Shown in pieces: positions 81-35,476 of a stretch of 40,000 bases of DNA. Each line of letters begins with the position of its first letter. Position 1 is the first letter of the stretch. Both the position numbers and the translations under genes were made by a program. The notes under the pieces were generated by a model. That model searched no databases, was not told the DNA's origin, and worked only from the letters and a program-made list of their open reading frames with translations. The stretch is from contig CP166133.1 in the NCBI GenBank assembly GCA_041228285.1, positions 1,853,380-1,893,379 on the forward strand. The letters are read 5' to 3'. The DNA comes from Neisseriaceae bacterium CLB_ANTARCTIC_008 (GTDB taxonomy: Bacteria; Pseudomonadota; Gammaproteobacteria; Burkholderiales; Neisseriaceae).

Positions 81-113
81 ATGATATTTTGATATCATAT
101 CAGACATTATAAT
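81..113 (+). promoter_or_regulatory. candidate operator/promoter upstream of 134..886
   Basis: Perfect 7-bp inverted repeat ATGATAT-tttg-ATATCAT (81-98) followed by TATAAT (108-113), about 20 nt before the ATG at 134. Confidence 0.3.
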
Positions 114-133
114 CAACCAGGCTGCTATCAAAA

Positions 134-886
134 ATGAGCGAGTTCAGCGCAGAAGAGCAAGGCATCATTGATTTTTTTTTGGACCAATATCAAGAAAACA
201 GAGAATCAAACGAAACAACACAATGGCTCAGTAAAGATCTCAGTAAAATATGTGCCATCATTGTTGCTCCATCAGTTATTAATAAAGACACTTATGACCT
301 TACATTCATCGATCCAGAAAACAAATTTAAACAAAAAATTATTCATCAAATCAAAATTCGTATTGTCACTATTTACTCCACGTTAAAACGATTAGAGCAA
401 AAAGGATTAATTTTTACCAAACCAAGCATCACCTTTACTCGACTACAGAAAGAAAAGAAACAAGACCAAATAATTGACGGCATGTTTGATGAGATGTTTG
501 GGGTTTTTACAGAAATGAATCATGAGTTAGATTATATTTGCTCTATAATTATCCCCTCTGGCGCGCTTTTAGAACTAAAAAGAAATAAATATGTTTCCGC
601 AGATAAAATCGCGCATGAGAAACAAATTAAATATTTAAGACTTCAAGCAATTTTTGCATATTTCGCTTTAGGAATATCAATTATAGGACCAGCTTTCTAT
701 TCATTAAAGCCAACTGCCATCACAATCCATGACAAAACACCACCGTTACCCATGGCCATAAATTCAGAAAAAATTGATGCCTTAAACCAAGAGGTCATCC
801 GTCTTGAAGCTAAGGTCGAATCCCTTAAATCTGAGGCCGTCAAGATTCAGGCCAAGCTTTCCAAACCAGACCCAGAAACGAAATAA
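134..886 (+). CDS. hypothetical protein with hydrophobic segment and coiled-coil-like C-terminus
   Basis: 250-aa ORF in AT-rich DNA; hydrophobic stretch AIFAYFALGISIIGPAFY; heptad-like tail EKIDALNQEVIRLEAKVESLKSEAVKIQAKL; hairpin terminator immediately downstream. Confidence 0.55.
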   Translation: MSEFSAEEQGIIDFFLDQYQENRESNETTQWLSKDLSKICAIIVAPSVINKDTYDLTFIDPENKFKQKIIHQIKIRIVTIYSTLKRLEQKGLIFTKPSITFTRLQKEKKQDQIIDGMFDEMFGVFTEMNHELDYICSIIIPSGALLELKRNKYVSADKIAHEKQIKYLRLQAIFAYFALGISIIGPAFYSLKPTAITIHDKTPPLPMAINSEKIDALNQEVIRLEAKVESLKSEAVKIQAKLSKPDPETK

Positions 887-893
887 CAAAAAA

Positions 894-915
894 CCGCGGA
901 TCAGCGCGGCTTTTT
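894..915. terminator. bidirectional intrinsic terminator
   Basis: CCGCG-gatcag-CGCGG hairpin flanked by an A-run upstream and T5 downstream, between convergent ORFs. Confidence 0.6.
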
Positions 916-958
916 AAACTTTGCAACAAAAGAATAATCCAGATAACTACATTATCAA

Positions 959-2377
959 TCATGTGAACTTTATCAATGATAATGGGTAATGAAGTATTGA
1001 CTTACTATCATGACAATAATATGCCTGGTAAAACTCAAATTCTTTCCTTGAGTGCTCTATACATTTTTTTTCTATACACTTCACAACCTTGATCTTATCT
1101 TCTGTTGAAGTATTAATGCCAAATATTAGCCCATGAAGATCTTGAAACTCATAGGTCAAAGTTCTGTCCTCAGGACTAGATAAGTCACGAAACATGCTTG
1201 TCAGTATTAACCGATGCTCATTCTCATAGGCCCAATCTTTCGTTTTTTTAACTATATCTCTATAAAAGCTAGCCCAATATGTATCGCGCCAAGCATCTTC
1301 ATCATTCAATATTGCATTAGCACATATACTTTCTTCATCATTAGAAAAATACCATGTGGAAAGTAGGCCAGGATATGGCAATCTACCTAATGATCTGAAA
1401 AAATCAATCTCACCTGCACCATCAACATAATCAATAGGTCTAAACTGAAAGCTACTTCTCTCTGCATAGTTTACTCTTTGATCTGGGTTTTCTTTCCATC
1501 TCAGACTTAATAGACTAGAACCATCTTGGCCATCTTGCGCTTCATAAACCAAACAAACACCAGTATGATTTTTAGCATAATGCGCCCAAATCGATGAATT
1601 TGCACACTCTGTCATAAAGCAAGCCGTGTACCAGTCTGGATACATTAATTTTTGAATTTGCTCTACGTATAATTTCGGAAAATCCAAAAGCATATAACTT
1701 CTAATGCTTAAGTTATTCTTTAGCAAATTATATTTATGCATTAAAGCCTGCTGTTCTGACAAAAACATATAACCTTGAAGCATTTTAGGGCTAGATAATT
1801 TAAAGCTTTCCTCCGAATCAATCATTGCTTCGAAATTTTCAAAAAACTTACCATCCAAGATATGTTGAATACCCTTTAAGCTGGCTTCTATCTTACTACT
1901 GTCACCACCATTAAAATGACTCTCTAACACCCCTACAGCATAAGAATTAATTGTATTAATATATAAGAGTAGCTCGGATTTCCGTATCACCGTTGATCTG
2001 CTTGCTATTTTCTGAATCAAGGTATCAATATATTCATTATTTAAGAAAGTTTCCGATATTTTCTTAAAAGATTCAGCATGCTTAGTAGTTTGAAAATCAT
2101 CATCTTGCATTCCTAAAAAAACATTAATATCATTTCCAGTTAAAATAGTCTCGCTATATAAAACAACTTTTATGAAGTAATCCTCTAGACAACGAAAATA
2201 GTGCCGAAATAAATTTCGCCAAATGATATAGTCACCTTTCCAATAGATGTCTCGAAAACCTTCCATTGGATCATTCAAAGAGTCCGGAGCAGCAAAAAAA
2301 ATACTTTGCCTCTCTAATTCTTTATACTCTCCAAATAAATTATCAATACTTCGAAATCGATAGAATTTCTTACTCAT
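959..2377 (-). CDS. DUF2971-family protein (long form)
   Basis: N-terminus KFYRFRSIDNLFGEYKELERQSIFFAAPDSLNDPMEG matches the DUF2971 signature as I remember it (Y-[KR]-[YF]-R..., then F..p..fNDP.E). Visibly AT-rich. First ATG at 2377; the track's TTG start at 2389 is possible. Confidence 0.6.
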   Translation of the reverse strand: MSKKFYRFRSIDNLFGEYKELERQSIFFAAPDSLNDPMEGFRDIYWKGDYIIWRNLFRHYFRCLEDYFIKVVLYSETILTGNDINVFLGMQDDDFQTTKHAESFKKISETFLNNEYIDTLIQKIASRSTVIRKSELLLYINTINSYAVGVLESHFNGGDSSKIEASLKGIQHILDGKFFENFEAMIDSEESFKLSSPKMLQGYMFLSEQQALMHKYNLLKNNLSIRSYMLLDFPKLYVEQIQKLMYPDWYTACFMTECANSSIWAHYAKNHTGVCLVYEAQDGQDGSSLLSLRWKENPDQRVNYAERSSFQFRPIDYVDGAGEIDFFRSLGRLPYPGLLSTWYFSNDEESICANAILNDEDAWRDTYWASFYRDIVKKTKDWAYENEHRLILTSMFRDLSSPEDRTLTYEFQDLHGLIFGINTSTEDKIKVVKCIEKKCIEHSRKEFEFYQAYYCHDSKSILHYPLSLIKFT

Positions 2378-2481
2378 GTTGTGATCCAATAAAACACTTA
2401 TAACTTAATAATAAATTAACACTTTTTAGAATCACACAATATACCCGAATCATCATATAATTAATACAACATATACATAAC

Positions 2482-2504
2482 AAAAAAACCACCCGAAGGT
2501 GGCC
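2482..2504 (-). terminator. intrinsic terminator after antirepressor gene
   Basis: Minus strand reads GGCCACC-TTCG-GGTGG followed by T7. Confidence 0.7.
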
Positions 2505-2510
2505 TTTCAA

Positions 2511-3404
2511 TTAATTAGAAGCTAACTTTGCACTTACCGGCATATATAGAAAATCCTGTACCCTCTCCAGGCGCTGATGCGTACTCCGTAATAAGTGTCT
2601 CAAACCTGAATATTCCATCCAGCAACCGCTAGTATCATAGCCATGGCTTTCCAGCTGGCGCAGTAAGCTAGCTATTGGCACCTGCCCTCTATAACGCTCA
2701 CCGTAAAGATCAACTAAGCCTTTATACGTCAACGCCCTCTCCCCGAAGTCATCCTCTAAGATGCTTGCTGGGAATGGTCTCATATCTAACTCTAAGGGCT
2801 TTGTATTTGGCTCATTAAATAATGGGTGTTGGAAGTCGTCATCCATAACCTCTCCATCCAATGCTAAATCATAGGCATACTTAACAGCACTAGCCAATTG
2901 ATCGATAGTCAGCTCTTTTGATGACTCAACTCCAAAGTGGCTATTAACCATTCCATAAGCTGTTGGGTAGTTTATCTTGCGGCGGGCTACTAAAACATTC
3001 ACAGCGTCTTTTAAAGGTACTCGGTCAGTTGGTGTACTAAGCCGGCTTTCGATATTACTTTGCTCGCCACTCTTCTCAATGATGTCTAATACCCACCGCC
3101 GGAACTCTTTTGCTACTGATGTCTTTGCAAACATGGCCACTAAATGGCACCCTCTCAGTGAGAAAACTTTTGTAGTTTGATGACGTAACCCGTTGATTTC
3201 CCCGCTGAACGTCAATTTGACGTTCTGTGACATCGATCCTATGAACTCATCCTTGTTACGTTCATAAATCTTGTTCACAGAGTCCTGTCGAGCATAACCG
3301 AGTGCCTTGGCCAAGTCAGCAGATGTAATCCAAATTTGAGTTGTATCGCTAGGGTTATTTACAGCATTGAATGACACTTTGTTGAATGTTAATTTTGCGT
3401 TCAT
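2511..3404 (-). CDS. phage antirepressor (BRO-N / KilA-N-like N-terminal domain, Ant-type)
   Basis: N-terminal IWITSADLAKALGYARQDSVNKIYERNKDEF...VFSLRGCHLVAMFAKTSVAKEFRRWVLDIIE is the pattern of BRO-N/P22 Ant-type antirepressors; AAGGAG RBS before the ATG. Confidence 0.7.
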   Translation of the reverse strand: MNAKLTFNKVSFNAVNNPSDTTQIWITSADLAKALGYARQDSVNKIYERNKDEFIGSMSQNVKLTFSGEINGLRHQTTKVFSLRGCHLVAMFAKTSVAKEFRRWVLDIIEKSGEQSNIESRLSTPTDRVPLKDAVNVLVARRKINYPTAYGMVNSHFGVESSKELTIDQLASAVKYAYDLALDGEVMDDDFQHPLFNEPNTKPLELDMRPFPASILEDDFGERALTYKGLVDLYGERYRGQVPIASLLRQLESHGYDTSGCWMEYSGLRHLLRSTHQRLERVQDFLYMPVSAKLASN

Positions 3405-3445
3405 GATGACTCCTTACTTTATCTACGAGATAAGCCCAAATGGGC

Positions 3446-3544
3446 GGCCAAGAGGTTCGTAGTCCCAGTAAGTAGGATGGGCGTATTCCCTGACAAGTCA
3501 GGTCTTGTATTAGCCACCCTCTCGGCCATAAGAAATCTTTTTTT
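3446..3544. other. structured region upstream of the antirepressor gene (leader or antisense RNA candidate)
   Basis: Long-range pairing GGCC-a-AGAGG (3446-3455) with CCTCT-c-GGCC (3518-3527) encloses CCTGA-caag-TCAGG (3489-3502); T7 run at 3538-3544 on the plus strand. Confidence 0.25.
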
Positions 3545-3673
3545 CAACGAAAGGAATCTATGGACGCAAAAAAATCACACTATCGTGGTGAATAAACGCT
3601 ACTGGAGGCTACGACACCTCGTGCAGCAATAGTACTAATTTAACTGATGATAGTCAAGGGACGAATATCCCAT

Positions 3674-6313
3674 CTATGTACCCAATATAATTTTCTGAAT
3701 AATAGGTGAAAATAAATGTTTCTTTAACTCAAAACACTTCAACGAAAATGGATCTATGTCACACATTTTTCTATATATGGTTGCAATAGATTGTTGATTT
3801 TGAAAACTTTTAGTTTTATCTAGTAATATATTAATCATTACATTATTCAAAATAACTCTATTTTCTTTTTCTAATCTTTTAAATAAATAGAATAAAGATA
3901 CTGCTAAGTTTCTATACTCTTCAACTGTTTCGAGTTGAAACAGTAATTGATAGAGTTCTTCATTATTAATTTTTTTATTATTAACCACAGAGCCAATTAA
4001 TAAGCTATAAAAATAATAAATATTACCTTCCCCATTTTTCCCATTACCCGTGGGGTTTTCATCACAAGCGGATAGTATCTCCTGCACTTTTTCATAAAAA
4101 ATAATGCATAAGTCTACTGGTAACTCCGAGCATAGCAAGCCATATAATGGACCATACAAAACATCAACATCCTTATCTGACTTAATAGGCTGACTTTGAA
4201 ATATTTTATCTAATAAGCTGGACATAATTTGGCCAACCAGTTTAAAGTCATTATAATCTTGTTGAATCAAATGCTTAATGACCCTTGAAAAAACTCTATG
4301 ATATGAATCTATTATCCACTCTCTAGTCTCTTTAGAGGTCCCCATTAAATCAATAGTTTTTTCTAGCTGAGTAACTAACTCAATACTTGTCAGTCCATCA
4401 ACCTTATCTGTAGCTGCATAATATTGATACCATTTTTGCAAAGATAGTGACTCACAAAAAGTCAAATCGTTATATTCGCCTTGTAACCTATAAAAATAGA
4501 ATGCATTAAATAATTTATCCCCGCGCTCTTTCTGAATAAAATCGATTAATAGCTCCCGTAGATTAAAATAAAATTCAATTCTTTTTAAATCAGTTAACGT
4601 TATAACCATTTCCTCAATTATAGAACCAATAATTCTTTGTGATGGTAGTAAATCTAATCTATCAATTTCTATGATAATAAAATCAATATCGTTTTTTAAT
4701 ATAGACTTTTGAGTTAAAGTCAAAACTGTAAATAATTTAAGAAATTGAGGCTCAGAGGACCATCTAGCGTGTCGAAGTGGAAATTTTTTATTTAAATAAA
4801 CTTGTTTAACTTTATCTTTGAGGGTAGATATATGATCAATCTCTAACTTATGGCTATTATCTATTAAAAATTCTATTAACTCGATACTACAACGATCCCC
4901 GACTAGATTAATAAATTTAACAGGAAGTGAGTCATCAATGTTGTAATTGTTATAAATAGAAACTATCATTTTATAAGTTTCTAGTTTCATATAAGGCTGA
5001 AACAAAAAATAAGTATAAAGCATATTTAAAACAAAAGTGTCAAGATCCTTATAATTACTCCACTCTTGTACTTCTAATTCAAGAATAGTACTTTGAATCA
5101 TACTTTCAATATATTTCGGGATATTATCTAGTAAGCCATATGAGCATGTATCTATTATTGACTTACAAAATATTTGAATTGCAGGCCCTAAAATTCTATT
5201 GCCATACCGACCATAAGTTATAATATTATTTTTTTTATGATGTATGTCTTTCCATACTTCATCAAAAATATACTTATAATCAGGTTCAATATCATCTGGT
5301 AGTTGCCAAGGGCCTAAACAAGATTTATATTTTTCGGCCCAATCCTCTACTTGTTTCTCACCCACATTATTATTCACAGAATATAGCCACATTTTATTTG
5401 ATATTAACTTCACATAAGTAGGATACTTATCATAAAATTGACTAAACATCTCTTGAGCAAGCTTATCTGCACTCTTGAACTGTCTTTTAAACAAATAAAC
5501 ATTTAGCAAACACGTTTTTAACTGTACTAATCGATTTAAATCTTTATCTTTTTTATTTTTATTATCCTTTAAATACTGATCTATAGCTTTATTTATATAC
5601 CTTTGGGCTTCATCATAGGCTCCTCTACATATATGTAAGGCAATTGTCACAGATTCTGTTTTTCCTAAAATACCTTTTAATTTGGCTATGGACTTATTCT
5701 CAAAAGCTACATTATAAAAATGAAAATAATAATCAATTTTTTCATCAGTTGTTTTAAACGTTTCGAAGGATAGACCTTTAGTAAACTTCTCGTAATGAAT
5801 ATTTTTGCTCTCTATGCTTTTAGAGCGATGTATCATTGATGTTAAACACACTGAAATTAATAAATGTACCTGTTGTTTAGATGGAAGAGTATTTTCATCT
5901 AAACTAATCTTATGCATACCGGCTAATTTATGTAGATTATTATTAGCAAACACTCGAGTTTGATAAACTTCATTTAAGTCATTAGCAATAAAGTCCTCTT
6001 TACCTTCCCACAAAAAAGAAGTTTTATTTAATTTATTATTTATATTACCTAATATTTCTTGATAGATAGCTAAATCTTTATGCAGTTCACCCTTCCAATA
6101 TTTACTATCTCCAAGCTTATGAAACTTATCAATCCCAAGCCTTTCTAAAGTAAAGTCCACTAGTAGCCTTATAGAACCATGACAAGCCCCAAAATGTTGA
6201 TTTTTATATAAGTCATTTACTTCAATGCAAATCTCAAGCAATCGCTCTGCCCCAAAAAGATTACTTTCTATAGAGCACTTAATTTCATTTATCAACGATG
6301 TAGAAATAAACAC
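3674..6313 (-). CDS. large hypothetical alpha-helical-repeat protein (879 aa)
   Basis: Uninterrupted 879-aa ORF in very AT-rich DNA; GTG start with AAGGGA RBS. No P-loop, nuclease or other catalytic motif recognised by eye. N-terminal ~150 aa faintly DUF4145-like (…VFANNNLHKLAGMH). Only 49 nt and no hairpin separate it from the upstream gene. Confidence 0.6.
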   Translation of the reverse strand: MFISTSLINEIKCSIESNLFGAERLLEICIEVNDLYKNQHFGACHGSIRLLVDFTLERLGIDKFHKLGDSKYWKGELHKDLAIYQEILGNINNKLNKTSFLWEGKEDFIANDLNEVYQTRVFANNNLHKLAGMHKISLDENTLPSKQQVHLLISVCLTSMIHRSKSIESKNIHYEKFTKGLSFETFKTTDEKIDYYFHFYNVAFENKSIAKLKGILGKTESVTIALHICRGAYDEAQRYINKAIDQYLKDNKNKKDKDLNRLVQLKTCLLNVYLFKRQFKSADKLAQEMFSQFYDKYPTYVKLISNKMWLYSVNNNVGEKQVEDWAEKYKSCLGPWQLPDDIEPDYKYIFDEVWKDIHHKKNNIITYGRYGNRILGPAIQIFCKSIIDTCSYGLLDNIPKYIESMIQSTILELEVQEWSNYKDLDTFVLNMLYTYFLFQPYMKLETYKMIVSIYNNYNIDDSLPVKFINLVGDRCSIELIEFLIDNSHKLEIDHISTLKDKVKQVYLNKKFPLRHARWSSEPQFLKLFTVLTLTQKSILKNDIDFIIIEIDRLDLLPSQRIIGSIIEEMVITLTDLKRIEFYFNLRELLIDFIQKERGDKLFNAFYFYRLQGEYNDLTFCESLSLQKWYQYYAATDKVDGLTSIELVTQLEKTIDLMGTSKETREWIIDSYHRVFSRVIKHLIQQDYNDFKLVGQIMSSLLDKIFQSQPIKSDKDVDVLYGPLYGLLCSELPVDLCIIFYEKVQEILSACDENPTGNGKNGEGNIYYFYSLLIGSVVNNKKINNEELYQLLFQLETVEEYRNLAVSLFYLFKRLEKENRVILNNVMINILLDKTKSFQNQQSIATIYRKMCDIDPFSLKCFELKKHLFSPIIQKIILGT

Positions 6314-6362
6314 ATGATCCCTTACTATATAAAAATTAAAAAAAGCTTCACTTAGACACTAC

Positions 6363-7034
6363 TTAAAACAAATTATCAATCTCAGCCCCATCTCTACCGG
6401 GGTCTTTATTCTCATACTTAGGATGTGGTTTTTCATCTAGCACATTAGCCTTATTCTTGCCTGACTCACGACTTTTCACTGCATTTCTATCAACGGTATT
6501 ACTAGCTGAGCCCACATTAGATGAACGAGTACGATTACTTTCAGTCGCTGCCTCAGAAGTACTCTTAGGGCTGCTAGCTGTTGATGCTTCATCCTTATTG
6601 CTCTTCGAGCATTGAGAAATAATAGCGAAAAAGAGGAATACCCAGAAAATAGTTTTAATCAGCTTCCAGAACGTACTTTTCTTTTTAACCGGTTCTTCCT
6701 GGTAATATCCAAGTACCCTGTCTTTTTCCAGTTCAAACTCTGATTCAGACAGAACACCTTTATCATACAACTTAGATAATCGTGTTAACTCATTACTAAC
6801 TGAGGCCCTAGTAGCTCTTGGTCCTGATGGAGTAGCCCTACTTTTATTGCCACTTAACTTGGTTCTATATGATAAGCCTGTGCCAGGTATACCTGCATTA
6901 AGATGAGTCCCTCTCTTCCCAATATTAACGCTAGCGCCTCGCCCACCGATCGTTACACTAGTGAAGCCTTTCTTACCTAGATTCAACTTCAGCCCTTTTC
7001 CTAGCTTAATTGATTTTCTAAACCTGAATCCCAT
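6363..7034 (-). CDS. DUF4236 + SHOCT domain membrane protein
   Basis: MGFRFRKSIKLGKGLKLNLGKKGFTSVTIGGRGASVNIGKRG is the DUF4236 N-terminal signature. LSKLYDKGVLSESEFELEKDRVLG is SHOCT-like. One TM segment (IFWVFLFFAIISQC), then a Ser/Thr-rich tail. Confidence 0.7.
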   Translation of the reverse strand: MGFRFRKSIKLGKGLKLNLGKKGFTSVTIGGRGASVNIGKRGTHLNAGIPGTGLSYRTKLSGNKSRATPSGPRATRASVSNELTRLSKLYDKGVLSESEFELEKDRVLGYYQEEPVKKKSTFWKLIKTIFWVFLFFAIISQCSKSNKDEASTASSPKSTSEAATESNRTRSSNVGSASNTVDRNAVKSRESGKNKANVLDEKPHPKYENKDPGRDGAEIDNLF

Positions 7035-7164
7035 TACCTATCTCCCACGCAATGAATTTTTAATCACAATAATTTTTATTATATGATTATAACGTATTTA
7101 TATTGGGTACAGTGCTAGACACTACATGAAATAGTTAAGTATTCTATGAATAATCAGAGCAAAT

Positions 7165-7187
7165 AAAAAAGCCCAGCAATACTGGGC
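7165..7187 (-). terminator. intrinsic terminator after 7240..7695
   Basis: GCCCAG-caata-CTGGGC hairpin; a T-run follows on the minus strand. Confidence 0.65.
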
Positions 7188-7239
7188 TTTGTTTGAGATA
7201 TTACTCGGTAGCAGACATATTCCCCATACAATTTGGGGA

Positions 7240-7695
7240 TTAAGCATCCATCACGGTAACCTGCCCATCCCAAACCGTTTCCCAACTGTTATCCTCACCT
7301 TTATGGTGCTGCACATATGGAGCTAAATAAATTAAGTCGTGCGCAAAAATCTTTTTCTCTAACTCTAATAATTTAACCAGTGGGCAATATATTAAAATTA
7401 CAACATCCTTATCATGAATTAAATGGCTAGAAAGGTCTTTTGCCACTACGTAAGCAATTTCAACGCCAGCTAAAACATTTGAACCTTTAAGTAGCCTTTT
7501 AAAAAAACCATCATCTAAACCGGCTATACTTTCTGCTTTAAGCAATTCATTATTCGGAAAGTTATCTTTTAAAGTTGTTGAAAAAACAACTCTACCACCA
7601 GCATTTTGAGCTAAAAATAGAGCATGATTGATGATTCCAATCATTTCGTGATCATCAATGCTTTTACAGTAGTCCTTATACAAATATCGGTTCAT
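7240..7695 (-). CDS. hypothetical protein (151 aa)
   Basis: ORF with GGGGA RBS, AT-rich, bracketed by terminators on both sides (single-gene unit). Confidence 0.5.
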   Translation of the reverse strand: MNRYLYKDYCKSIDDHEMIGIINHALFLAQNAGGRVVFSTTLKDNFPNNELLKAESIAGLDDGFFKRLLKGSNVLAGVEIAYVVAKDLSSHLIHDKDVVILIYCPLVKLLELEKKIFAHDLIYLAPYVQHHKGEDNSWETVWDGQVTVMDA

Positions 7696-7794
7696 ATATA
7701 CATCCCCATAGAGCCTTATAGTGCCGCCCGTTGATAGTAATTTATAGCTTATCTTGGCTTATTACGCAAACATAACTATCGCAACAATTAGACG

Positions 7795-7825
7795 TAAAAA
7801 AACCACCTGGGCGGTGGCTTTTTTT
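7795..7825. terminator. bidirectional intrinsic terminator
   Basis: A8-CCACC-tgggc-GGTGG-C-T7. Confidence 0.7.
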
Positions 7826-7834
7826 AGCGCTAGG

Positions 7835-8485
7835 CTAACGTAAATCTTCTTCTTTTAACGGGTTGGCTTCCCATTTGTTCGCCAACATTTCCAAATCCAG
7901 AAATAAGGTTTTCTTTCCGGTTTTTACCCTCAACCGGTCCACAGGACCTGACATGACAGACCACAGCCTAAGAATATTTGAACAATGTACACGCTTATAA
8001 AGCGCCTCATCAATTACTTTGGCGTTTATAGCACTAGCAAAAAACTCACTTCTATTCAGCACTAACATAGAGCTTGTCTTTACTTCTTTCATTAAATCTG
8101 ATTCTAAATCTTCTAAATTCTGCTCAAACAAACTAGTTAATGACTGATGAGTGTTTTTATGTTTCTTATTATAATCATACACCTGCATCTTTGCCTCATA
8201 AAAAACGGTATCTTGATAATCATTCAAAATAGCACTTAATGTCGCAACTTCACAAGATGTACGTCTATTCGACCTCATCGTGATAATAGCTATCACTGCA
8301 GTTATAAAAATAATAACTAGTTGAGCCAGACTAAGCCACTCCCCTCTCTCCCAAGAGGCTAGGTGTAACTTAGCTAAGTAAGACTGAAGAAAAGTTAAAC
8401 TTGATAAAAAGAAGGCGGCTAGTGCCAAAACTGACACCCATCCGCCTACTTTAACCTGTTTAACAAAACTTTTCTTAGTCATCAT
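7835..8485 (-). CDS. two-TM membrane protein, DUF4760-like
   Basis: Two N-terminal hydrophobic helices (WVSVLALAAFFLSSLTF; LAQLVIIFITAVIAIITM), then NRR and a helical domain with LNRSEFFASAINAKVIDEALY. The architecture resembles DUF4760 as I recall it. GAGGGA RBS. Confidence 0.5.
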   Translation of the reverse strand: MMTKKSFVKQVKVGGWVSVLALAAFFLSSLTFLQSYLAKLHLASWERGEWLSLAQLVIIFITAVIAIITMRSNRRTSCEVATLSAILNDYQDTVFYEAKMQVYDYNKKHKNTHQSLTSLFEQNLEDLESDLMKEVKTSSMLVLNRSEFFASAINAKVIDEALYKRVHCSNILRLWSVMSGPVDRLRVKTGKKTLFLDLEMLANKWEANPLKEEDLR

Positions 8486-8591
8486 ATCCCTCAGAAACTA
8501 ATTGAATGTTTAATTTTCTCGTCATGAATTTCATATTAATACTCCCTTACTCTATTATTGCAAAACTACCTTAAGTAGAATGTATAGACAC

Positions 8592-8619
8592 AAAAAAACT
8601 TAACAAGTTGCTTGTTAAG
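8592..8619 (-). terminator. intrinsic terminator in the 8486-9073 gap
   Basis: Minus strand reads CTTAACAAG-caa-CTTGTTAAG followed by T7. Confidence 0.65.
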
Positions 8620-9073
8620 CTGAGTGCATATACATGCTATAAAAAGAACGACGTAAGCTACGACGCTTCGAAATCACTTATGTAATTACCTTTTAGCATT
8701 GCTACTTACTATGCAGTAATAGTAAGACAAATTCGCCAATATTACCAGCCGAAATATACACGAGAACCCAGAGTTTACTGGCTTTTTGCCCTGTTTTATG
8801 AAGAAAGCCAACTGTAAGCATTACGGGGTCTGCCCTGTAGCCAATGGCTAATTTTGACACTTGTCACCAAATTTGTATCAAAAAAACTACTGAACTATGG
8901 TCAGACTACCCATAAACATTGAGTTCTCGCTAAAACTGACCTAGAAATTAGAGCATTTTTAGCCCCGCTGGCCCAATAACACACGATGAACATTTCTCTT
9001 TAAGTCATACTCGACCCAGCAGCTCAAGCCACTGGATCGAGCCAATATCCTCACACAGCAACAAACTACCTAC

Positions 9074-13946: not shown

Positions 13947-14748
13947 ATCCGCCCCATGCTTCAAACGCGTCTTCGCTGATAAGGGAATCAAATTGAAATC
14001 GGTAGGGTGGCAAACCCTCACCCCCTTTCCCTTCATCCCATGGCACCAACACAAATCCATCATCAAAAACACGCAACCGCACGATATGATCCATGATGGC
14101 CGTACCGGTATAAAACTCGCCCAACAGGGTTTTGTATGAGCTGGCGGGCATGGCCAATAGTGTCTCAATGTTGTTCTTGATAAAGCTGTCGATGCTCACC
14201 TCGTCAAACACATTCATGTCGGTACCGGCCGCATGGACTTGTGCCGCGATACAGGCCATCTCCCATGCTGCATCTTTATTTGATACACCCCGCACATCCC
14301 CACGCAACACGGCGCGCTCCACAGCCTCAACCCATGCCGTGGTTAACGGGCGCATTTCCAGCTGGTCTGGATCATCGGACCCTGCATCCAATTCAAAACG
14401 ATACACCAGCTCATCAGGCCCAACGCTGTATTTGTTTTTTGTGATGGGATGGTCGGCGCCGTCACGGCCCAAATAATCAATAATCGTAGCCTCAAGGTCT
14501 GGCCCAATATTGAATGCCTCGCCCTTGTTGTGAAGGTGGACTTGGTAATGGATCACCGCGGCGTACCGCTCTTGGGCCGTCCAATGAGCCAGCGCTAGGT
14601 TGCTGTCCAACAAGAACGCTTCAATGGATTTGGTGATCCCAAGTTCATTGTGCTCAACGGGCATTTTGCACAGCTCAATAATCGAGCCAACACTCAGCTC
14701 TTTAAACGTCGCATTAATGCGTGACGTCACGAATGGCGGTATATGCAT
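13927..14748 (-). CDS. hypothetical protein (273 aa) between terS and terL
   Basis: ORF starts 3 nt after the terS stop; no motif recognised. Confidence 0.6.
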   Translation of the reverse strand: MHIPPFVTSRINATFKELSVGSIIELCKMPVEHNELGITKSIEAFLLDSNLALAHWTAQERYAAVIHYQVHLHNKGEAFNIGPDLEATIIDYLGRDGADHPITKNKYSVGPDELVYRFELDAGSDDPDQLEMRPLTTAWVEAVERAVLRGDVRGVSNKDAAWEMACIAAQVHAAGTDMNVFDEVSIDSFIKNNIETLLAMPASSYKTLLGEFYTGTAIMDHIVRLRVFDDGFVLVPWDEGKGGEGLPPYRFQFDSLISEDAFEAWGGYDVAGV

Positions 14749-16337: not shown

Positions 16338-16587
16338 GCCTCATTATGTATCCAAATAGATACAATTGCAAGTAATATCATCCAATGCCATACGCCATAC
16401 AATAAAGAGTTTCCTTTATTACTGGGGCACCTGCCCTAGCCAGAACGAATCACAATGCGTCTCAGGCTCGCGCGTGCGCGCGTATCTGTTTCGTGGCGCC
16501 AGCTTGGCTTCTATGATGTATTGTGCTGGCCCAAAAAAGCCACCCCTTAAGGATGGCTGAAACAATTGAAGCCTTATCATTATTCAT

Positions 16588-17241
16588 TTAGCACCCTTGG
16601 GTCTTACATGCAACTCCCCACATGATAAAAGCAGGAGCAACAAGCATAGGGCCCAAGATTGCCTTACCATTTACACTAACTTCCTTACCATAAGACTCAA
16701 CCGTCACTTCCAATGGTTTTTTTAATAAATATTTTTCTAGTAATTCATCACGATTATCTAGCTTAACCACTCTACCTTCTAAGTAATAATTACCACTTAA
16801 CAAAGGTTTATTTATATTCCGATCAGGTAACAGTTTATTCATTGCTTTTGTACCCTCGGTTCCCAGTACATTCACAATACCAAATTTGTAATTTTTAACT
16901 AAATCATCAACTTCTTCCTTAGTAAAAATTTCTTTATCTAAATAGATACTGTAGTTCCCACGTATTTCATTTGTATTCTTTGTGTAATCCCAAAAATTGG
17001 CAGTAGTAAATAATATTTTATTTTTATATGTAGAATTTAAAAAACTTTGCAGCCTAATTACTGAGTTTCCATTAAATTCATATTCAAACTCCGGCCCTGC
17101 AGCATAGAGCTTATCCCCCTGAATAAAAACCGCCTGGATACTTTCTTCCCTACTATGCTTATAAACAGTAGAAGTAACGCAGCTACTTAAAAACATACTA
17201 GCCGCCAACGAGAATATCAGTTCTTTTACCAAGCCATTCAC
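16588..17241 (-). CDS. putative lipoprotein
   Basis: Signal peptide ending in lipobox LSSC (…AASMFLSSCVTS); AT-rich. Confidence 0.6.
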   Translation of the reverse strand: MNGLVKELIFSLAASMFLSSCVTSTVYKHSREESIQAVFIQGDKLYAAGPEFEYEFNGNSVIRLQSFLNSTYKNKILFTTANFWDYTKNTNEIRGNYSIYLDKEIFTKEEVDDLVKNYKFGIVNVLGTEGTKAMNKLLPDRNINKPLLSGNYYLEGRVVKLDNRDELLEKYLLKKPLEVTVESYGKEVSVNGKAILGPMLVAPAFIMWGVACKTQGC

Positions 17242-21668: not shown

Positions 21669-21794
21669 GGTAATTTTCCTATTACTAATTGGTAATATTA
21701 TTACCCAAAACAAAATCAAGATCAACACCTTTTGGTGTTTTACCTTTTTAGTAATTATTGAGAGAATAACGACTGCATCTTAAGAGGCTACTAA
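21669..21794. promoter_or_regulatory. immunity control region (OR-type operators, divergent promoters)
   Basis: Palindromes ATTACT-aatt-GGTAAT (21681-21696) and AACACC-tttt-GGTGTT (21724-21739); TTTACC-N5-AGTAAT (21739-21755). On the minus strand, TTGATC, ~16-17 nt, then TAATAA/TAATAT reads towards cro. Confidence 0.6.
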
Positions 21795-22490
21795 ATGACA
21801 ACGGCAGATATTCGCAGAGCGAATTTAAAAAAATGGATTGATGAAAAGCACAATGGCACACAGGCCAGCTTTGTTGCGCTAACTGGCATTAACCAGGGCG
21901 AGCTATCAGGGCTTCTAAATAAAAAGTCCTTCGGAGAGAAAAAAGCTAGATCCCTAGAAAAGATTGCGGGCATGCCTGAAATGTGGCTAGACACCCCAGT
22001 GATAACAAAGGAGTCTAACGTCAGCGATATCGGCCGCCCTCACCTATGGAGTAGCAACGACCCATTACCTGAAGAGGATTATGTCTTTTTGCCATTCTAC
22101 AAAGACATTGCCCTTTCTGCCGGCACGGGCTGCTTTTCTACGGATGACCACAACGGCTATAAGCTGCCATTTGCTAAATCAACACTAAGACGCCATAACG
22201 TTCAATACGACCAAGCTGTATGTGTAACCGTGAGCGGCAACTCAATGGAGCCAGTCCTACCAGACGGCACGACCGTTAGCGTGAACATGGCCGACAAACG
22301 CATCGTGGACGGCAAGATTTACGCTATTTGCCAAGGTGACATGCTTCGAGTGAAGCGCCTTTATGCTCTACCTGGTGGGAAAGTCCGCATTAGTAGCTAT
22401 AACGGTGATGAACACCCAGACGAAATCGAGCCTACTGGTGATGTCGAGATCATTGGCCGTGTATTTAATTGGTCAGTCATGGACGTGTAG
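21795..22490 (+). CDS. cI-like repressor (N-terminal HTH, C-terminal S24/LexA-type autopeptidase)
   Basis: AAGAGG RBS; Ala-Gly cleavage-site candidate in ALSAGTG; catalytic Ser in SGNSMEP and Lys in LRVKRL. Confidence 0.9.
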   Translation: MTTADIRRANLKKWIDEKHNGTQASFVALTGINQGELSGLLNKKSFGEKKARSLEKIAGMPEMWLDTPVITKESNVSDIGRPHLWSSNDPLPEEDYVFLPFYKDIALSAGTGCFSTDDHNGYKLPFAKSTLRRHNVQYDQAVCVTVSGNSMEPVLPDGTTVSVNMADKRIVDGKIYAICQGDMLRVKRLYALPGGKVRISSYNGDEHPDEIEPTGDVEIIGRVFNWSVMDV

Positions 22491-22786: not shown

Positions 22787-23278
22787 TTGAATATTAAAAC
22801 CATAACCGATCAAGATTTAGACGATCTTATTAAATGCCATAAAAGGGCAACTAAAAATGCCAGGGATATCCCTGATAAGCGGCATATAAAAAAAGACTTT
22901 TCTTTAGTCGCCAGCAAATACCCTGAGTATAAGTTCACTCTCTACATTAGGCATAGCCTTGAGATGGAGGATGATTATACTGTGGGCCTAAGGGTTAGCC
23001 TACCCAAAGAAAAAAATCCCTTAACTCTAGTAAGATTTAATGGTAGTAGCCATGGGCATAAAAATGTACTAGAGGATGAGTCATTTCCTTTTAATGAACA
23101 TATTCACAAAGCAACTGAGCGCTATATCAAAGCGAAGCTAAAAGCTGAGGGATACGCCCTAGTCACAGATCAATACACCACTGTTGAAGGAGCCTTGCTT
23201 CACGCCTGTGAAATATGCAATATTACAGGTATACTTGCTAATACAATATCAGCGGCCAATCAGGACTTGTTTAACTAA
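22787..23278 (+). CDS. hypothetical protein (163 aa), first gene of a two-gene cassette
   Basis: TTG start with AGAGG RBS 7 nt upstream; AT-rich; His-rich centre (RFNGSSHGHKNV…NEHIHKATE); stop 1 nt before the next ATG. Confidence 0.55.
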   Translation: MNIKTITDQDLDDLIKCHKRATKNARDIPDKRHIKKDFSLVASKYPEYKFTLYIRHSLEMEDDYTVGLRVSLPKEKNPLTLVRFNGSSHGHKNVLEDESFPFNEHIHKATERYIKAKLKAEGYALVTDQYTTVEGALLHACEICNITGILANTISAANQDLFN

Positions 23279-23279
23279 A

Positions 23280-24056
23280 ATGATTACAGCAGAACACATC
23301 GAAAGAATATTGTGCACCAGCTTTTGCACAGATATTCAAACCAGAGAACGAAAAGATGGATGGATACAAGTATCCACCCCTTTCGTTGGTCGCGATGGTG
23401 ATATCTACAACATTTTCTTAAAACAAAAAAATGGTATTGTTAGAGTATCTGACCGCGGTTCAACCATTATGCGGCTAAGTTATGAGACAGACTTAAAGAC
23501 TTTAACTGGTGCACGACAAGAAACTTTGATTCAAATTACGGATGAACAAGGTGTCTTATATGATGATGGTGAGATTTACACAGAAACGATTGCGAGCAAT
23601 ATAGGCAGTGCTGTTTTTAAACTTGGACAAGCACTAACAAGAGTGTCAGATATTGGCCTCTGGTCCGCAGGAAGAATTAAGTCAACATTTTACGAAGACT
23701 TAGAATGCACACTTGATGATATTCTAGACAAGCATAATATTCATAAGGATTATTGTATCCCAGACCAGGTTAATTCAAGCAACTATCCTATTGACTATTA
23801 CCTACAAGGGGAAAGTAGCAAACCATTGTATTTATTTGGTGTACCCGACTCATCAAAAGCAAGGCTAACAACAATTGTTTTAAAACAATTAGAAGTATGG
23901 AATCAAAATTTTGATTCTATCGTTGTCTTAAGCAAGATGGATGATATACCAAAATCTGATTTAGCTAGACTTATGGATGCTGCCAATGACATAGTCCCCT
24001 CAATAAGTGACACAGCTTCTATCCACAAGAAAATTAATCACCGACTATCTGCATAA
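23280..24056 (+). CDS. DUF1828/DUF1829-like protein (258 aa)
   Basis: The track ORF is trimmed to the ATG at 23280, which is translationally coupled to the upstream gene. N-terminus …GWIQVSTPFVGRDGDIYNIFLKQKNGIVRVSDRGSTIMRLSY… resembles DUF1828. The C-terminal half is DUF1829-like (from memory, unverified). Confidence 0.55.
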   Translation: MITAEHIERILCTSFCTDIQTRERKDGWIQVSTPFVGRDGDIYNIFLKQKNGIVRVSDRGSTIMRLSYETDLKTLTGARQETLIQITDEQGVLYDDGEIYTETIASNIGSAVFKLGQALTRVSDIGLWSAGRIKSTFYEDLECTLDDILDKHNIHKDYCIPDQVNSSNYPIDYYLQGESSKPLYLFGVPDSSKARLTTIVLKQLEVWNQNFDSIVVLSKMDDIPKSDLARLMDAANDIVPSISDTASIHKKINHRLSA

Positions 24057-24058
24057 AT

Positions 24059-24084
24059 CCCCCTCACTCGAGGGGGATTTTTTT
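24059..24084 (+). terminator. intrinsic terminator after the cassette
   Basis: CCCCCTC-actc-GAGGGGG followed by A-T7. Confidence 0.8.
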
Positions 24085-24252
24085 GCCCACAGAAAAGCCC
24101 CAGGAGTGTGTGAGTCCTGAGGCTGCTGGGTCTCTCTCTAAGCTAGTTGCTAATTGCGGCTTAACCTAGATGTAAAATTATACCTATCAAATATCATATG
24201 TAAATAAGCCATTTATACTAGGGCCATGACACAACGACTCAAAAGCCTACTA

Positions 24253-24302
24253 AATGAAATACCCCAACAACTAAGGTCACAAAGTTATTGGGGTAAGTGG
24301 GC
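24253..24302 (+). repeat. hairpin-family copy 1 (AATGAAATACCCCA…TGGGGTAAGTGGGC)
   Basis: Stem CCCCAACAAC/GTTATTGGGG (one mismatch), 12-nt loop, conserved flanks. Confidence 0.5.
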
Positions 24303-24550
24303 CGCTAGGCATTATGGCAATGAAACAGCCCATAGTTACTATACTCTTTCCCTTGAAATGAATAACTACTCATGAAGTATTAAATCTTTTGTATAACCCA
24401 AAAAAAGACCCAAACACCAATCAGGGTGCCTGGGCATCAAGGAAATATAATGAATAAACATAGGACTGCAAAAACACGGTCAAGTTTCAAGAAGTAATCA
24501 TTTTTTATAAGTCACCTCCCTGCTCAGCCTCTATGTAATTTTCTCAAGTC

Positions 24551-24595
24551 AATAAAATACCCCAGCGTTAGCGAGACACGCTGGGGTAAGTGGGC
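24551..24595 (+). repeat. hairpin-family copy 2 (AATAAAATACCCCA…TGGGGTAAGTGGGC)
   Basis: Stem CCCCAGCG/CGCTGGGG (perfect), 11-nt loop. Flanks match copy 1 at 13/14 (5') and 14/14 (3'). Confidence 0.5.
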
Positions 24596-24797
24596 TCTCT
24601 CTGAGTCATACTTTAAAACTCAACCCAATATTAGCTTATCATTCCAAAAGCATTAAAATCAACAAAATTTAAAATAACCAATTGATATATTTAGATATGT
24701 ATCTTTTATGTCGTAAATATATTTACAACATCTATGCATAAATTCAGTACGGAACCTCTTATAAAGATCGTATGCATGAATTAATTAAATCACTTAA

Positions 24798-24821
24798 GAC
24801 CACTGAGAGGTGGCCTTTTTT
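24798..24821 (+). terminator. intrinsic terminator in a non-coding region
   Basis: GACCAC-tgagag-GTGGCC (one A:C mismatch) followed by T6. Confidence 0.5.
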
Positions 24822-24914
24822 CTATATGTTGTAAAAATATCACCTAAAAATTACCATTTATATATCTTTTTAAATCAAATAATTACCAAATAAATTACTT
24901 TCACCTCCATTTAA

Positions 24915-24957
24915 ATTACCTTTTGGTATTGATAAATCAATTACCGTTTAGTAATAT
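24915..24957 (+). promoter_or_regulatory. pL-type promoter with two repressor operators
   Basis: ATTACC-tttt-GGTATT (24915-24930) and ATTACC-gttt-AGTAAT (24940-24955) share the half-site/N4 architecture of the cI/cro operators. They overlap -35 TTGATA (24929-24934) and -10 TAATAT (24952-24957), which are 17 bp apart. Confidence 0.55.
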
Positions 24958-25284
24958 AACCCCATCGAATCAGCGCAGCACTGGCAGGACAGACTGGTTC
25001 ATCGGTCTTTAACAGTTACATACGCAATAGCCAGCCTTCCACTTGAAAGCATCCAAGTGAGTACATACAAAGGTAATACTTTGGGGTAAGTCGAACAAAT
25101 GGCTATGAACACGTATTCAACGTGGCGACAGTGGACGTACTCAAATACAGGGGACGGAGACACGGCAAAGATGAATAGCAGCCAAGGCGAAACTTGGACG
25201 GTGCCAGTGCCGCGACTGGATCGGCTTATGCGAAAACGAACCTACAAATGGTCGATTTGGCTAGATATAAAAGCAGTAGCATAT

Positions 25285-25382
25285 GGGACTGTAGCTCAGA
25301 TGGTAGAGGGGCTTATGAGGGTTTGCCAGGGGTGGCTTTTCCCTCTCTTGCACGGTCGCAGGTTCGAGTCCTGCCAGTCCCT
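25285..25382 (+). ncRNA. tRNA-like element with a non-canonical central domain (not a callable tRNA)
   Basis: Acceptor GGGACTG (25285-91) pairs with CAGTCCC (25375-81). D-arm GCTC-AGATGGTA-GAG(G). T-arm GCAGG-TTCGAGT-CCTGC (25358-74). The 48 nt between them form GAGGG/CCCTC plus GCCA-GGGG-TGGC instead of an anticodon arm. Confidence 0.5.
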
Positions 25383-25400
25383 ACCAAGACTTTAAATTGA

Positions 25401-25428
25401 AGCACTCAGAACAGAGTGCTTTTGTGTG
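25401..25428 (+). terminator. intrinsic terminator after the tRNA-like element
   Basis: AGCACTC-agaaca-GAGTGCT followed by TTTGTGTG. Confidence 0.7.
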
Positions 25429-25433
25429 AGGTT

Positions 25434-25949
25434 TTATTTATAGGCGCTTCCATGAGCCATATAGTGGTCCTTCACTATTTGGTGAAAGCAATTATGCAAC
25501 TCATAGTAATCGCTTTGTTTAATTTGAAATATAACTTTTCTTTTTGAGAGAGTAAGAGTAACCATATCAGTGTTATCAAATTTTATCGGCTCAAAATTCT
25601 CATACAGATAGAGCATTACTACGTTCACCTCATCCTCAGACAGGTCAAGAAAAACTTTCTTCGCCTGAGCTTCTGCTGACTTGATGCGCTTTTTTTCGAT
25701 GCGGGAAGATAGTGATTTCCCTAACCAACTAAAAGCAAGAACGGTTAAGTCAACCAACGCATAAGATATAGCGAAGGTTAGGGCCAGCGTAGTTAATGAC
25801 CCTGACCCAAACGGAAGGCTTCGTGGCACCAGATCGAGCCATGACTCTGGAGCAAGAAGGTAGAGAACTAGAGTTAATAAAATCGTGTACATCATTTTCC
25901 CCAAGGGGACTTTATTAAAAATAATTTCAATTAGCCTAATAAAATCCAT
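25434..25949 (-). CDS. membrane protein, SieB-like (superinfection exclusion candidate)
   Basis: Two N-terminal TM helices, then a soluble domain; ~170 aa, AT-rich, opposite in orientation to the surrounding operon. Size, topology and location are as for lambdoid SieB. Sequence assignment unverified. Confidence 0.45.
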   Translation of the reverse strand: MDFIRLIEIIFNKVPLGKMMYTILLTLVLYLLAPESWLDLVPRSLPFGSGSLTTLALTFAISYALVDLTVLAFSWLGKSLSSRIEKKRIKSAEAQAKKVFLDLSEDEVNVVMLYLYENFEPIKFDNTDMVTLTLSKRKVIFQIKQSDYYELHNCFHQIVKDHYMAHGSAYK

Positions 25950-26076
25950 AGTTGCAATTTCTCTAGTTGTGTGGGGATGGCTAATTATGCCTTAAATTTC
26001 GTTGTGTGGGGACATGACGAAAAACTATCGGACTCAGAGCCGACAAGTCCAGTAAAAGGCTGGCATCAATGATTAA

Positions 26077-26100
26077 AGCCCATTACGGTGGGCTTTTGTG
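26077..26100 (+). terminator. intrinsic terminator
   Basis: AGCCCA-ttacgg-TGGGCT followed by TTTGTGTGA; the tail is identical to that of the 25401 terminator. Confidence 0.6.
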
Positions 26101-26154
26101 TGAAGTTTTCAACGAAAGTAATCTAAGACAAATCACCCAAAAGGAGCAGCATCC

Positions 26155-26406
26155 ATGAGCACTAAGAAATCACCCCTCACTTTAAAGCTAACCGGCGCCG
26201 AAATTAAAAACCTACGTCGCAGACTTGGCCTTAACCAAGCAGCCTTCTGGTCACCTGTTGGCGTAACCCAGTCAGGTGGCAGCCGCTACGAATCAGGGCG
26301 AAACATCCCTACCCCAACAGCCATGATGATTCATCTTGTTTACTTGGCTAAAACCCCTGCTGACGACCTTCAGTCACACAAGAAGGTCTGGGCATTGGCA
26401 AAGTAG
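26155..26406 (+). CDS. small XRE/YiaG-like HTH protein (83 aa)
   Basis: AAGGAG RBS; IKNLRRRLGLNQAAFWSPVGVTQSGGSRYESGRNIPTPTAMMIHLV. Confidence 0.7.
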   Translation: MSTKKSPLTLKLTGAEIKNLRRRLGLNQAAFWSPVGVTQSGGSRYESGRNIPTPTAMMIHLVYLAKTPADDLQSHKKVWALAK

Positions 26407-35385: not shown

Positions 35386-35476
35386 TGGCGGAGGCGGTGA
35401 GATTCGAACTCACGGAAGGGTATAAGCCTTCGACGGTTTTCAAGACCGTTGCATTCAACCGCTCTGCCACGCCTCC
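35386..35476 (-). tRNA. tRNA-Ser (anticodon UGA), CCA encoded
   Basis: Reverse complement GGAGGCGTGGCAGAGCGGTTGAATGCAACGGTCTTGAAAACCGTCGAAGGCTTATACCCTTCCGTGAGTTCGAATCTCACCGCCTCCGCCA. Anticodon stem-loop ACGGT-CTTGAAA-ACCGT; long variable arm; 91 nt. Confidence 0.92.

Follow-up and report, generated by a model that had tools for sequence, protein, structure and literature searches.

A tRNA-shaped element with a long hairpin for its anticodon arm in the early leader RNA of a Neisseriaceae lambdoid prophage, a candidate non-decoding tRNA mimic

Here we describe a 98-nucleotide (nt) tRNA-like element in a lambda-like prophage of Neisseriaceae bacterium CLB_ANTARCTIC_008, located within a stretch of 40,000 nt of contig CP166133.1 that we refer to as the window. 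The element has the outer architecture of a tRNA and carries an irregular hairpin where the anticodon arm should be, and it cannot decode. It follows a conserved, structured leader RNA that starts at a promoter overlapped by repressor operators, and we believe that it could well be a non-decoding tRNA mimic which RNase P and 3'-processing enzymes would excise from the early leader.

First, the body of the element is that of a tRNA. The acceptor, D and T arms which a first-pass annotation of this DNA had recognised are all there by direct reading (Table 1), as are all nucleotides of the elbow and core, namely U8, A14, G15:C48, G18, G19, A21, G46, G53:C61, T54-T55-C56 and A58. The body is free of damage, with 15 base pairs and the conserved tertiary positions intact, except for a G10.G25 mismatch that the first-pass annotation did not mention and that leaves the D stem with three Watson-Crick pairs. 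The Rfam tRNA model RF00005 matches the element with 38.0 bits (gathering score 29; E = 1.2e-4 across the whole 40-kb window) and aligns to it from end to end, with 42 unaligned nucleotides standing for the 17-nt anticodon arm. Moreover, the full cloverleaf with the extended arm has a predicted energy of -39.0 kcal/mol and lies within 0.4 kcal/mol of the minimum free energy of the 98-mer (-39.4 kcal/mol), and a U is found at position -1 both in the window and in the related contig L067. The 3' end reads CAGTCCC-T-ACCA, which places CCA one base off register, as had been noted before. When the two halves of the body were compared with phage records by BLAST, tRNAs for Pro, Phe, Asn, His, Met, Ile and Tyr matched about equally, and since the halves resemble so many isotypes no identity set can be assigned; a tRNA-Lys isotype, first considered from resemblance to the E. 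coli sequence, was withdrawn for this reason.

Second, none of our analyses recovers an anticodon stem-loop. The D and T stems are separated by 48 nt, as first counted, and an exhaustive scan of this region in all registers for a 5-bp stem with a 7-nt loop gave no candidate that combines five pairs, U33 and a purine at position 37. One apparent hidden loop, GGUGG-CUUUUCC-CUCUC, offers U33 and the triplet UUU, but it was rejected because it has two Watson-Crick and two G.U pairs, a pyrimidine at position 37 and lies off register. ARAGORN reported only tRNA-Ser(tga) at 35386-35476 in the window and did not call the element, and the anticodon arm is the only part of the Rfam model that is missing from it; the earlier view that this is not a decoding tRNA is thereby upheld. 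The central 44 nt fold as the first-pass annotation had drawn them (-17.6 kcal/mol, 84% of the ensemble, z = -1.98). From base to tip, the arm consists of a GC/GC pairing (25311-12 with 25350-51), a 4x4 internal loop (UUAU/UCUU), the stem GAGGG/CCCUC (25317-21 with CCCTC at 25341-45), a 3x4 loop of U residues and the stem GCCA/UGGC, which is closed by a GGGG tetraloop (GCCA-GGGG-TGGC, 25325-36). The suggestion that the element is an ordinary tRNA with a short insertion had to be abandoned: removal of GCCAGGGGTGGC yields GAGGG-UUUUUUU-CCCUC, but 7 nt would still separate this stem from the D stem on one side and from the variable loop on the other, and because the arm is lengthened at both its base and its tip no simple deletion restores a canonical arm. 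As a separate observation, two 13-nt stretches on the minus strand of the window are identical to parts of the central arm, one to each of its halves (14008-14020 and 16535-16547; about 0.1 such 13-mers are expected by chance), of which TGAGGGTTTGCCA lies inside a tail-region gene and AGGGGTGGCTTTT forms the 3' half of the terminator of the gene at 16588-17241.

Third, the element is placed in a transcript that appears to be under repressor control. The window contains a lambdoid prophage, in whose gene order the element sits where lambda has nutL-N-tL1. The perfect operator ATTAC-N6-GTAAT occurs only twice in the window, at OR (21681-21696, between cI and cro) and at 24940, where it overlaps a promoter, and a 36-nt inverted repeat joins this PL-like operator region to the cI/cro intergenic region. 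Relatives in which cI differs in its N-terminal part carry another type of operator around the same -35 and -10 hexamers, and their identity to the window begins exactly at the -10. Because perfect operators are confined to OR and this promoter, and because the operators change with the repressor in relatives, the earlier proposal that the element lies at the 3' end of an early, repressor-controlled transcript is well supported by these sequence comparisons.

The leader RNA that precedes the element is itself conserved, its core being 83-98% identical in five contigs (L061, L062, L063, L065 and L067); several of the Logan contigs end inside the leader. RNAalifold applied to three leader sequences yielded 65 pairs, seven of which show compensatory double changes, and the covarying helices include CACTTG/CAAGTG, which becomes CACTCA/TGAGTG, AATAGCCA/TGGCTAT, which becomes AGCAACCA/TGGTTGC, and CCAGT/ACTGG, which becomes CCAAT/ATTGG. 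Judged by this comparison, the leader is a selected RNA. A protein-coding role was rejected, as the 98-amino-acid open reading frame (ORF) at 25099-25395, within which the element falls, loses its frame in L061 through an indel of 1 nt. Searches of the Rfam families and BLAST searches of phages, plasmids and E. coli genomes returned no match to the leader. It also contains the only boxA-like motif in the window (0.09 expected), which agrees with the published consensus GYTCTTTAANA at 10 of 11 positions (PMC5725501). This motif is kept in all five contigs named above and reads GACCTTTAACA in the more distant L068, and we infer that it would be bound by Nus factors. The leader is probably an undescribed structured RNA at the nutL-N position of an N-less group of lambdoid phages.

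The variable junction between leader and element holds a weak promoter-like sequence, TACAAA-17-TATAAA (25243-25271; 8/12 by eye and under the threshold of the scan), which we considered as a promoter of the element's own and rejected because it is not conserved in L067, the junction being replaced in both L067 and L061. Co-transcription of element and leader is supported by the sequence of L067, where the junction seen in the window is missing and the leader core leads directly into the element. On the other side, the 3' trailer is kept in L061 and L067, with or without the tRNA-like element, and it runs into a terminator- or attenuator-like hairpin which was read from the sequence and was not listed by a simple terminator scan. 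L061 and L068 have a hairpin of other sequence at the same place, in which the pairing is kept and which is followed by the same tail, GTGTGARGTTTTT. We also observed that a CCCCA...TGGGG hairpin precedes TGGGGTAAGTGGGC on two occasions and TGGGGTAAGTCGAA in the leader (24253-24302, 24551-24595 and 25082-25095); the first TGGGGTAAGTGGGC unit lies in a 49-amino-acid ORF, the second looks degenerate, and a similar unit occurs in L067.

Comparison of relatives reveals what else can occupy the place of the element. An identical copy in contig L015 is uninformative, as the whole block 24980-26150 differs at three positions. In L067 (Logan ERR12379735) the same leader, with 17 mismatches in 261 positions, is followed by a tRNA-like element that departs from the window at two of its 98 bases. 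Both changes fall at the tip of the central hairpin: G25331A sits in the tetraloop, while C25327T leaves its pair standing as U.G. The L067 copy is the sole informative homologue for conservation of the central arm. L061 has the same leader and trailer around a slot of about 50 nt with an unrelated hairpin, GGTTCCC-N11-GGGAACC, and L068 has a distant form of the leader (boxA, a CCAAGG...TTGG hairpin and a terminator) and an empty slot. L069, from a related RecT/YqaJ-type prophage, carries a genuine tRNA-Arg(UCU) at positions 1-58, which scores 37.8 bits although it is cut by the contig end, has CCA in register and lies 27 nt upstream of the homologous helix-turn-helix (HTH) gene with no terminator between them. 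More generally, the interval from the promoter to the HTH gene is a moron hot spot that receives sieB, yecR, a lipoprotein gene and a 99-amino-acid ORF. Going by these alignments, the element is a swappable leader module in a slot that takes tRNA-shaped or other small structured modules.

Outside this group we found no related element in phages (BLAST), E. coli genomes, plasmids, or pattern and protein scans of IMG/VR. A scan of metagenomes, which like the other collection scans took exact patterns, returned 28 loci, all of them ordinary tRNAs, 3' ends of transfer-messenger RNA (tmRNA) or unrelated tRNA-like sequences, and a scan of genomes returned 13 loci, which were archaeal intron-containing tRNAs and unrelated bacterial oddities. 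A narrow pattern applied to IMG/VR did retrieve 14 viral contigs (L001-L014) in which an intact tRNA body has an anticodon region that is foreign or enlarged (13-47 nt), among them a perfect long hairpin in L013, Leu(CAG)-like bodies with an 18-nt insert after position 38 in L008, L009 and L011, and a copy within the tRNA array of a 160-kb phage in L005. They are not homologous to the element, and tRNA bodies with foreign anticodon arms may be common in phages. Chromosomal tRNA bodies with inserts of about 45 nt in the anticodon region were also seen in Herpetosiphon spp. (L048, L052, L053 and L055) and Chryseobacterium (L049 and L056); the insert is kept across four species in the former and across two genomes in the latter, and both are too short for group I introns.

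Taken together, we favour a tRNA mimic that serves as a handle for RNase P, which was one of the possibilities raised by the first-pass annotation and which we retain as a prediction. Following loss of the repressor, the early-left leader would be transcribed, and the tRNA-shaped module would fold and be recognised by the tRNA-maturation machinery of the host. RNase P would then cleave at U25284/G25285, with trimming by 3' nucleases towards ACCA at the other end. These cuts would separate the boxA leader from the downstream RNA and free a compact, nuclease-resistant RNA of about 100 nt, in which the long, U.U-rich arm might carry the specific activity, either as a binding surface or as an inert plug that blocks decoding. 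We favour this reading because only the anticodon arm is missing from the match to the tRNA model, with elbow and core intact and U at position -1; because the cloverleaf with the extended arm is close to the minimum free energy; and because degeneration is asymmetric, the central arm being unrecognisable and the body intact. It is further favoured by the promoter and operator context, the nutL-N-tL1 position, the co-linearity with a selected leader, the fact that the related phage Aaphi23 has an RNase P-processed C4 RNA at the equivalent place, and the confinement of both L067 substitutions to the hairpin tip, one of them keeping the pair.

A number of observations weigh against this reading. 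The CCA of the element is off register, while the real tRNA genes of the host and of the phage group encode it in register (N73-CCA in the host tRNA-Ser and the L069 tRNA-Arg), and the D stem has its G10.G25 mismatch. An exact-complement search for antisense targets of the central arm gave none that is convincing or conserved, and duplexfold searches were uninformative. Minimum-energy folds of the whole transcript use a helix between 24980-24990 and 25368-25378 and not the cloverleaf. The element diverges less than the leader (2/98 against 17/261), a suggestive difference that falls short of significance (p about 0.08) and could be explained by recent recombination, the neighbouring tail and trailer being as conserved between the window and L067 as the element is; the two distinct element sequences found are too few for judging conservation or covariation of the central arm. 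Finally, the alleles of L061 and L068 indicate that the module is dispensable and moron-like. The first-pass annotation had argued that the placement of the element speaks for function: the position in an early transcript holds, but the argument is weakened by relatives that carry another hairpin, nothing or a real tRNA in the same slot.

These same alleles lend themselves to an alternative which we consider unlikely, yet worth keeping in view, namely that the element descends from a tRNA moron in the slot, that a single rearrangement removed the anticodon arm, and that what is left is a functionless pseudogene so far spared further damage. The genuine tRNA-Arg(UCU) of L069, the nature of the slot as a moron hot spot, the absence of the element from L061 and L068, the displaced CCA and the D-stem mismatch would all fit such a history, and a recent exchange could account for the near identity of element and tail in the window and L067. 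However, damage is limited to one arm in an otherwise intact body, the replacement is a well-formed 41-nt hairpin whose extension at both base and tip would require more than one event, and the body has remained unchanged while the adjoining leader diverged by 6.5%.

Lambdoid phages place anti-host functions in the early-left region, as exemplified by ral and gam of lambda and abc of P22. As the first product expected from the early-left transcript, the element combines an intact tRNA body with an inability to decode, and it is patchily present among close relatives, as is typical of counter-defence cargo. We therefore give a small chance to the idea that it acts as an early anti-defence RNA, a decoy or inhibitor whose tRNA shape would titrate a tRNA-targeting nuclease, a modification enzyme, the CCA-adding enzyme or a tRNA-binding toxin. 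Against it, known anticodon nucleases need an anticodon loop, which is absent here, the body gives no isotype signal, and no tRNA-targeting defence system is recognisable in the window. A slim chance may also be granted to a more far-reaching proposal, in which the element would be a natural 'tRNA scaffold' effector and would represent an undescribed class of phage early-leader RNA. Its body would provide processing and stability, and its U.U-rich rod, acting within the first minutes of induction or infection, would bind and neutralise a host factor, such as a defence nuclease, a Nus or termination factor or a tRNA-binding enzyme; the IMG/VR tRNA bodies would then be members of the class with other payloads.

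The helix preferred in whole-transcript folds raises the further possibility of a switch in cis, which we judge very unlikely. By analogy with the leader-trailer helix of rrn transcripts, the tRNA fold would compete with this helix and so tune read-through of the downstream hairpin by boxA-modified polymerase. The loop of a leader hairpin at 24980-24990 (ACUGGCAGGAC) is perfectly complementary over 11 nt to the 3' strand of the T stem and acceptor at 25368-25378 within one transcript, the minimum-energy folds of both the window and L067 use the pairing, the complementary loop is absent from L061, which is without the element, and the boxA-like motif lies 14 nt downstream of the loop. On the other hand, the loop is altered in L067 and L065 (ATTAGCAGGAC and ACTAGCAGGAC) without compensation in the unchanged element, one change giving an A.C mismatch; the match emerged post hoc, from a search across 40 kb in which about two such 11-mers are expected by chance, and minimum-energy folds of long RNAs are unreliable (whole-transcript z-scores of -1.7 and -0.3). 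Lastly, although tRNA-shaped DNA is a common target of integrases, the suggestion that the element serves as a secondary attachment site, or as a target for some other integrative element, has a minimal probability, given that the prophage integrase adjoins its own attachment site in tRNA-Ser (35386-35476), that the element is a full tRNA body and not a 3' fragment, that no integrase or repeat flanks it and that the alternative alleles in relatives are small RNA modules rather than inserted elements.

Table 1. Features of the early-left region and of the prophage in the window, with the leader in related contigs. Positions are those of the window unless a contig is named.
Feature	Position	Strand	Description
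tRNA-like element	25285-25382	+	98 bases; RF00005 match
Acceptor stem	25285-25291 with 25375-25381	+	GGGACTG/CAGTCCC, 7 bp
D arm	25294-25309	+	GCTC-AGATGGTA-GAGG; TA at positions 8-9 before the arm
Extended central arm	25311-25351	+	41-nt irregular hairpin replacing the anticodon arm
Variable loop	25353-57	+	
T arm	25358-25374	+	GCAGG-TTCGAGT-CCTGC; CGGTC just 5'
Discriminator	T25382	+	3' end reads T-ACCA
OL-like operator cluster and PL-like promoter	24846-24960	+	
Operator	24915-24930		ATTACCTTTTGGTATT
Sigma-70-like promoter	24929-24957	+	-35 TTGATA (24929-24934), 17-nt spacer, -10 TAATAT (24952-24957); promoter scan 9/12
Operator	24940-24955		ATTACCGTTTAGTAAT, perfect, overlaps promoter
Leader RNA core	24962-25227	+	Non-coding, about 265 nt, conserved, structured
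boxA-like motif	25004-25014	+	GGTCTTTAACA, in a leader stretch predicted single-stranded
Variable junction	25228-25284	+	Between leader core and element; replaced in L067 and L061 by GTAGCTGCCTAGAAATTAAGTA...
3' trailer	25383-25403	+	ACCA, then conserved CAAGACTTTAAATTGAAGC
Terminator/attenuator-like hairpin	25400-25435	+	AAGCACTC-AGAACA-GAGTGCTT, then TTGTGTGAGGTTTT (U-rich tract, TTTTGTGTGAGGTTTT)
Leader in L067	L067 4762-5022		
Leader in L061	L061 3045-3306	-	
Leader in L068	L068 1-230		Distant form
Gene order from integrase end, 1			Integrase, adjoining tRNA-Ser
Gene order, 2			C5-methylase
Gene order, 3			SSB and ERF
Gene order, 4	26155-26406		Small HTH protein
Gene order, 5	25434-25949	opposite	sieB
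Gene order, 6			Non-coding stretch with the element
Gene order, 7			Operators
Gene order, 8			Two morons, DUF6978 and DUF1828
Gene order, 9	21795-22490		cI
Gene order, 10			cro-like
Gene order, 11			cII-like
Gene order, 12			O-like
Gene order, 13			ninG and ninB

Beyond the element itself, the hairpin-plus-tail module that follows it (TTTTGTGTGARGTTTT) is doubled in the window, at 25400-25435 and 26078-26109. Since the two copies flank sieB on both sides, while L067 has no sieB and a single copy that leads straight into an early ORF, sieB looks like a moron inserted by duplication of the module. Between sieB and the second copy, two occurrences of TGTGTGGGG lie 35 nt apart on the strand that the early transcript would use (25968-25976 and 26003-26011, plus strand), and the sequence is found nowhere else in the window (0.29 expected); it is a candidate counterpart of boxC of rrn operons, which it seems to resemble. 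Between cI and the operators, at the position of lambda rexAB, DUF6978 (22787-23278) and DUF1828 (23280-24056, matching the PADLOC candidate PDC-M24B) may form a prophage-encoded defence pair. Further cargo of low GC content (0.28-0.37) lies at 1-8500 and comprises a DUF2971 protein (959-2389) matching the PADLOC candidate PDC-S31, a Bro-N protein, an 879-amino-acid protein without a family match, and DUF4236/SHOCT and DUF4760 proteins. The adjacent operator-like sites ATTACCTTTTAGCATT and CTTACTATGCAGTAAT at 8685-8720, close to the boundary between this cargo and the structural genes, may by their sequence represent a third repressor-controlled site.

When set against known systems, the element is not a decoding tRNA, a tmRNA, a C4 or isrK RNA, or a YrlA RNA. 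It shares its body with phage-borne tRNA morons and occupies the same slot as the tRNA-Arg(UCU) of L069, but unlike these it lacks an anticodon stem-loop, has its CCA off register and receives no ARAGORN call. Like the element, tmRNA and YrlA keep the elbow of acceptor and T arm and have a long helix for the anticodon arm. However, a tmRNA is marked by the pair G3:U70, by a D arm that is reduced, and by pseudoknots and a tag reading frame, whereas position 3:70 of the element is a G-C pair and its 98 nt contain no open frame, and in YrlA the topology is reversed: its ends exit through the stem on the anticodon side, where they form a Ro-binding stem (PMC4201824), whereas those of the element meet in the acceptor stem. 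ARAGORN found no tmRNA in the window, the element has no Rfam match to tmRNA or YrlA, and there is no rsr-like gene among the annotated ORFs of the window.

A closer parallel is provided by phage leader RNAs. C4 of P1 and P7 (RF01695) and the related CI RNA of satellite P4 are, like the element, small structured RNAs that belong to early or immunity operons of phages and lie in their untranslated leaders. According to PMC5320573 (citing Hartmann et al. 1995), host RNase P releases C4 from the longer RNA by cutting where an acceptor-like stem begins, and C4 acts through two loops on targets within the same transcript. In phage Aaphi23, whose CI is related to that of the window, a C4 antisense RNA (RF01695, 58 bits) is found in the early-left leader at the equivalent position. 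As in the element, the 5' and 3' ends of C4 form an acceptor-like stem followed by ACC(A), and in Aaphi23 the closing stem is followed by ACCA. Unlike the element, C4 has a 17-bp closing stem and two hairpins and no cloverleaf with D and T arms, and its loops a' and b' pair with repeated targets. Exact-complement searches gave no such targets for the element, in which the sole notable complementarity (24980-24990) pairs with the T/acceptor strand and not with a loop and varies in relatives. Searches with the C4, isrK and c4-a1b1 models gave no match at E <= 10 in 23900-26300, although the same search finds C4 of Aaphi23. By these comparisons the element is not a homologue of C4; it occupies the same niche and is a closer mimic of an RNase P substrate. 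We note in addition that matches to isrK-like RNA, AaHKsRNA82 and C4 lie in tandem at 8356-8602 of Aaphi23 (L071) and are unannotated in its GenBank record.

Outside bacteria, the TMERs of murine gammaherpesvirus 68 are tRNA-like processing units. For mascRNA of MALAT1 and MEN-beta, two sources (PMC11693755 and PMC8128908) describe a tRNA-shaped, non-decoding unit at which the RNase P cut ends the upstream RNA and frees a small stable RNA. The element resembles both in being a non-decoding, tRNA-shaped unit on the 3' side of a longer non-coding RNA. They are, however, eukaryotic or herpesviral and unrelated to it in sequence, the anticodon arm of mascRNA is shortened whereas that of the element is lengthened, and the element, unlike mascRNA and the TMERs, precedes an intrinsic-terminator-like hairpin and protein-coding early genes. 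In the tRNA scaffold engineered by Ponchon and Dardel, a foreign hairpin reportedly takes the place of the anticodon arm and the insert is stable and correctly processed in bacteria; the element has the same design, but it is natural where the scaffold is man-made. Our literature search brought up no account of a tRNA mimic without an anticodon in the early leader of a phage.

Should the element be processed as predicted, bacterial viruses would have their own counterpart of mascRNA-type handles and the tRNA scaffold would have a natural version, in which the tRNA shape is only a ticket into the processing and stabilisation machinery of the host for a hairpin that has nothing to do with tRNA. 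The leader at the nutL-N place of these Neisseriaceae lambdoid prophages accepts interchangeable 3' modules, be it a tRNA mimic, a plain hairpin, a real tRNA or nothing, and could serve as a tractable system for studying how N-less lambdoid phages pass their first terminator. Elements of this kind may also explain a class of 'pseudo' or 'undetermined' tRNA calls in phage genomes. By analogy with the systems considered here, we believe that the element works most like the RNase P-processed leader RNAs of phages, C4 and the CI RNA of P4, and like handles of the mascRNA type.

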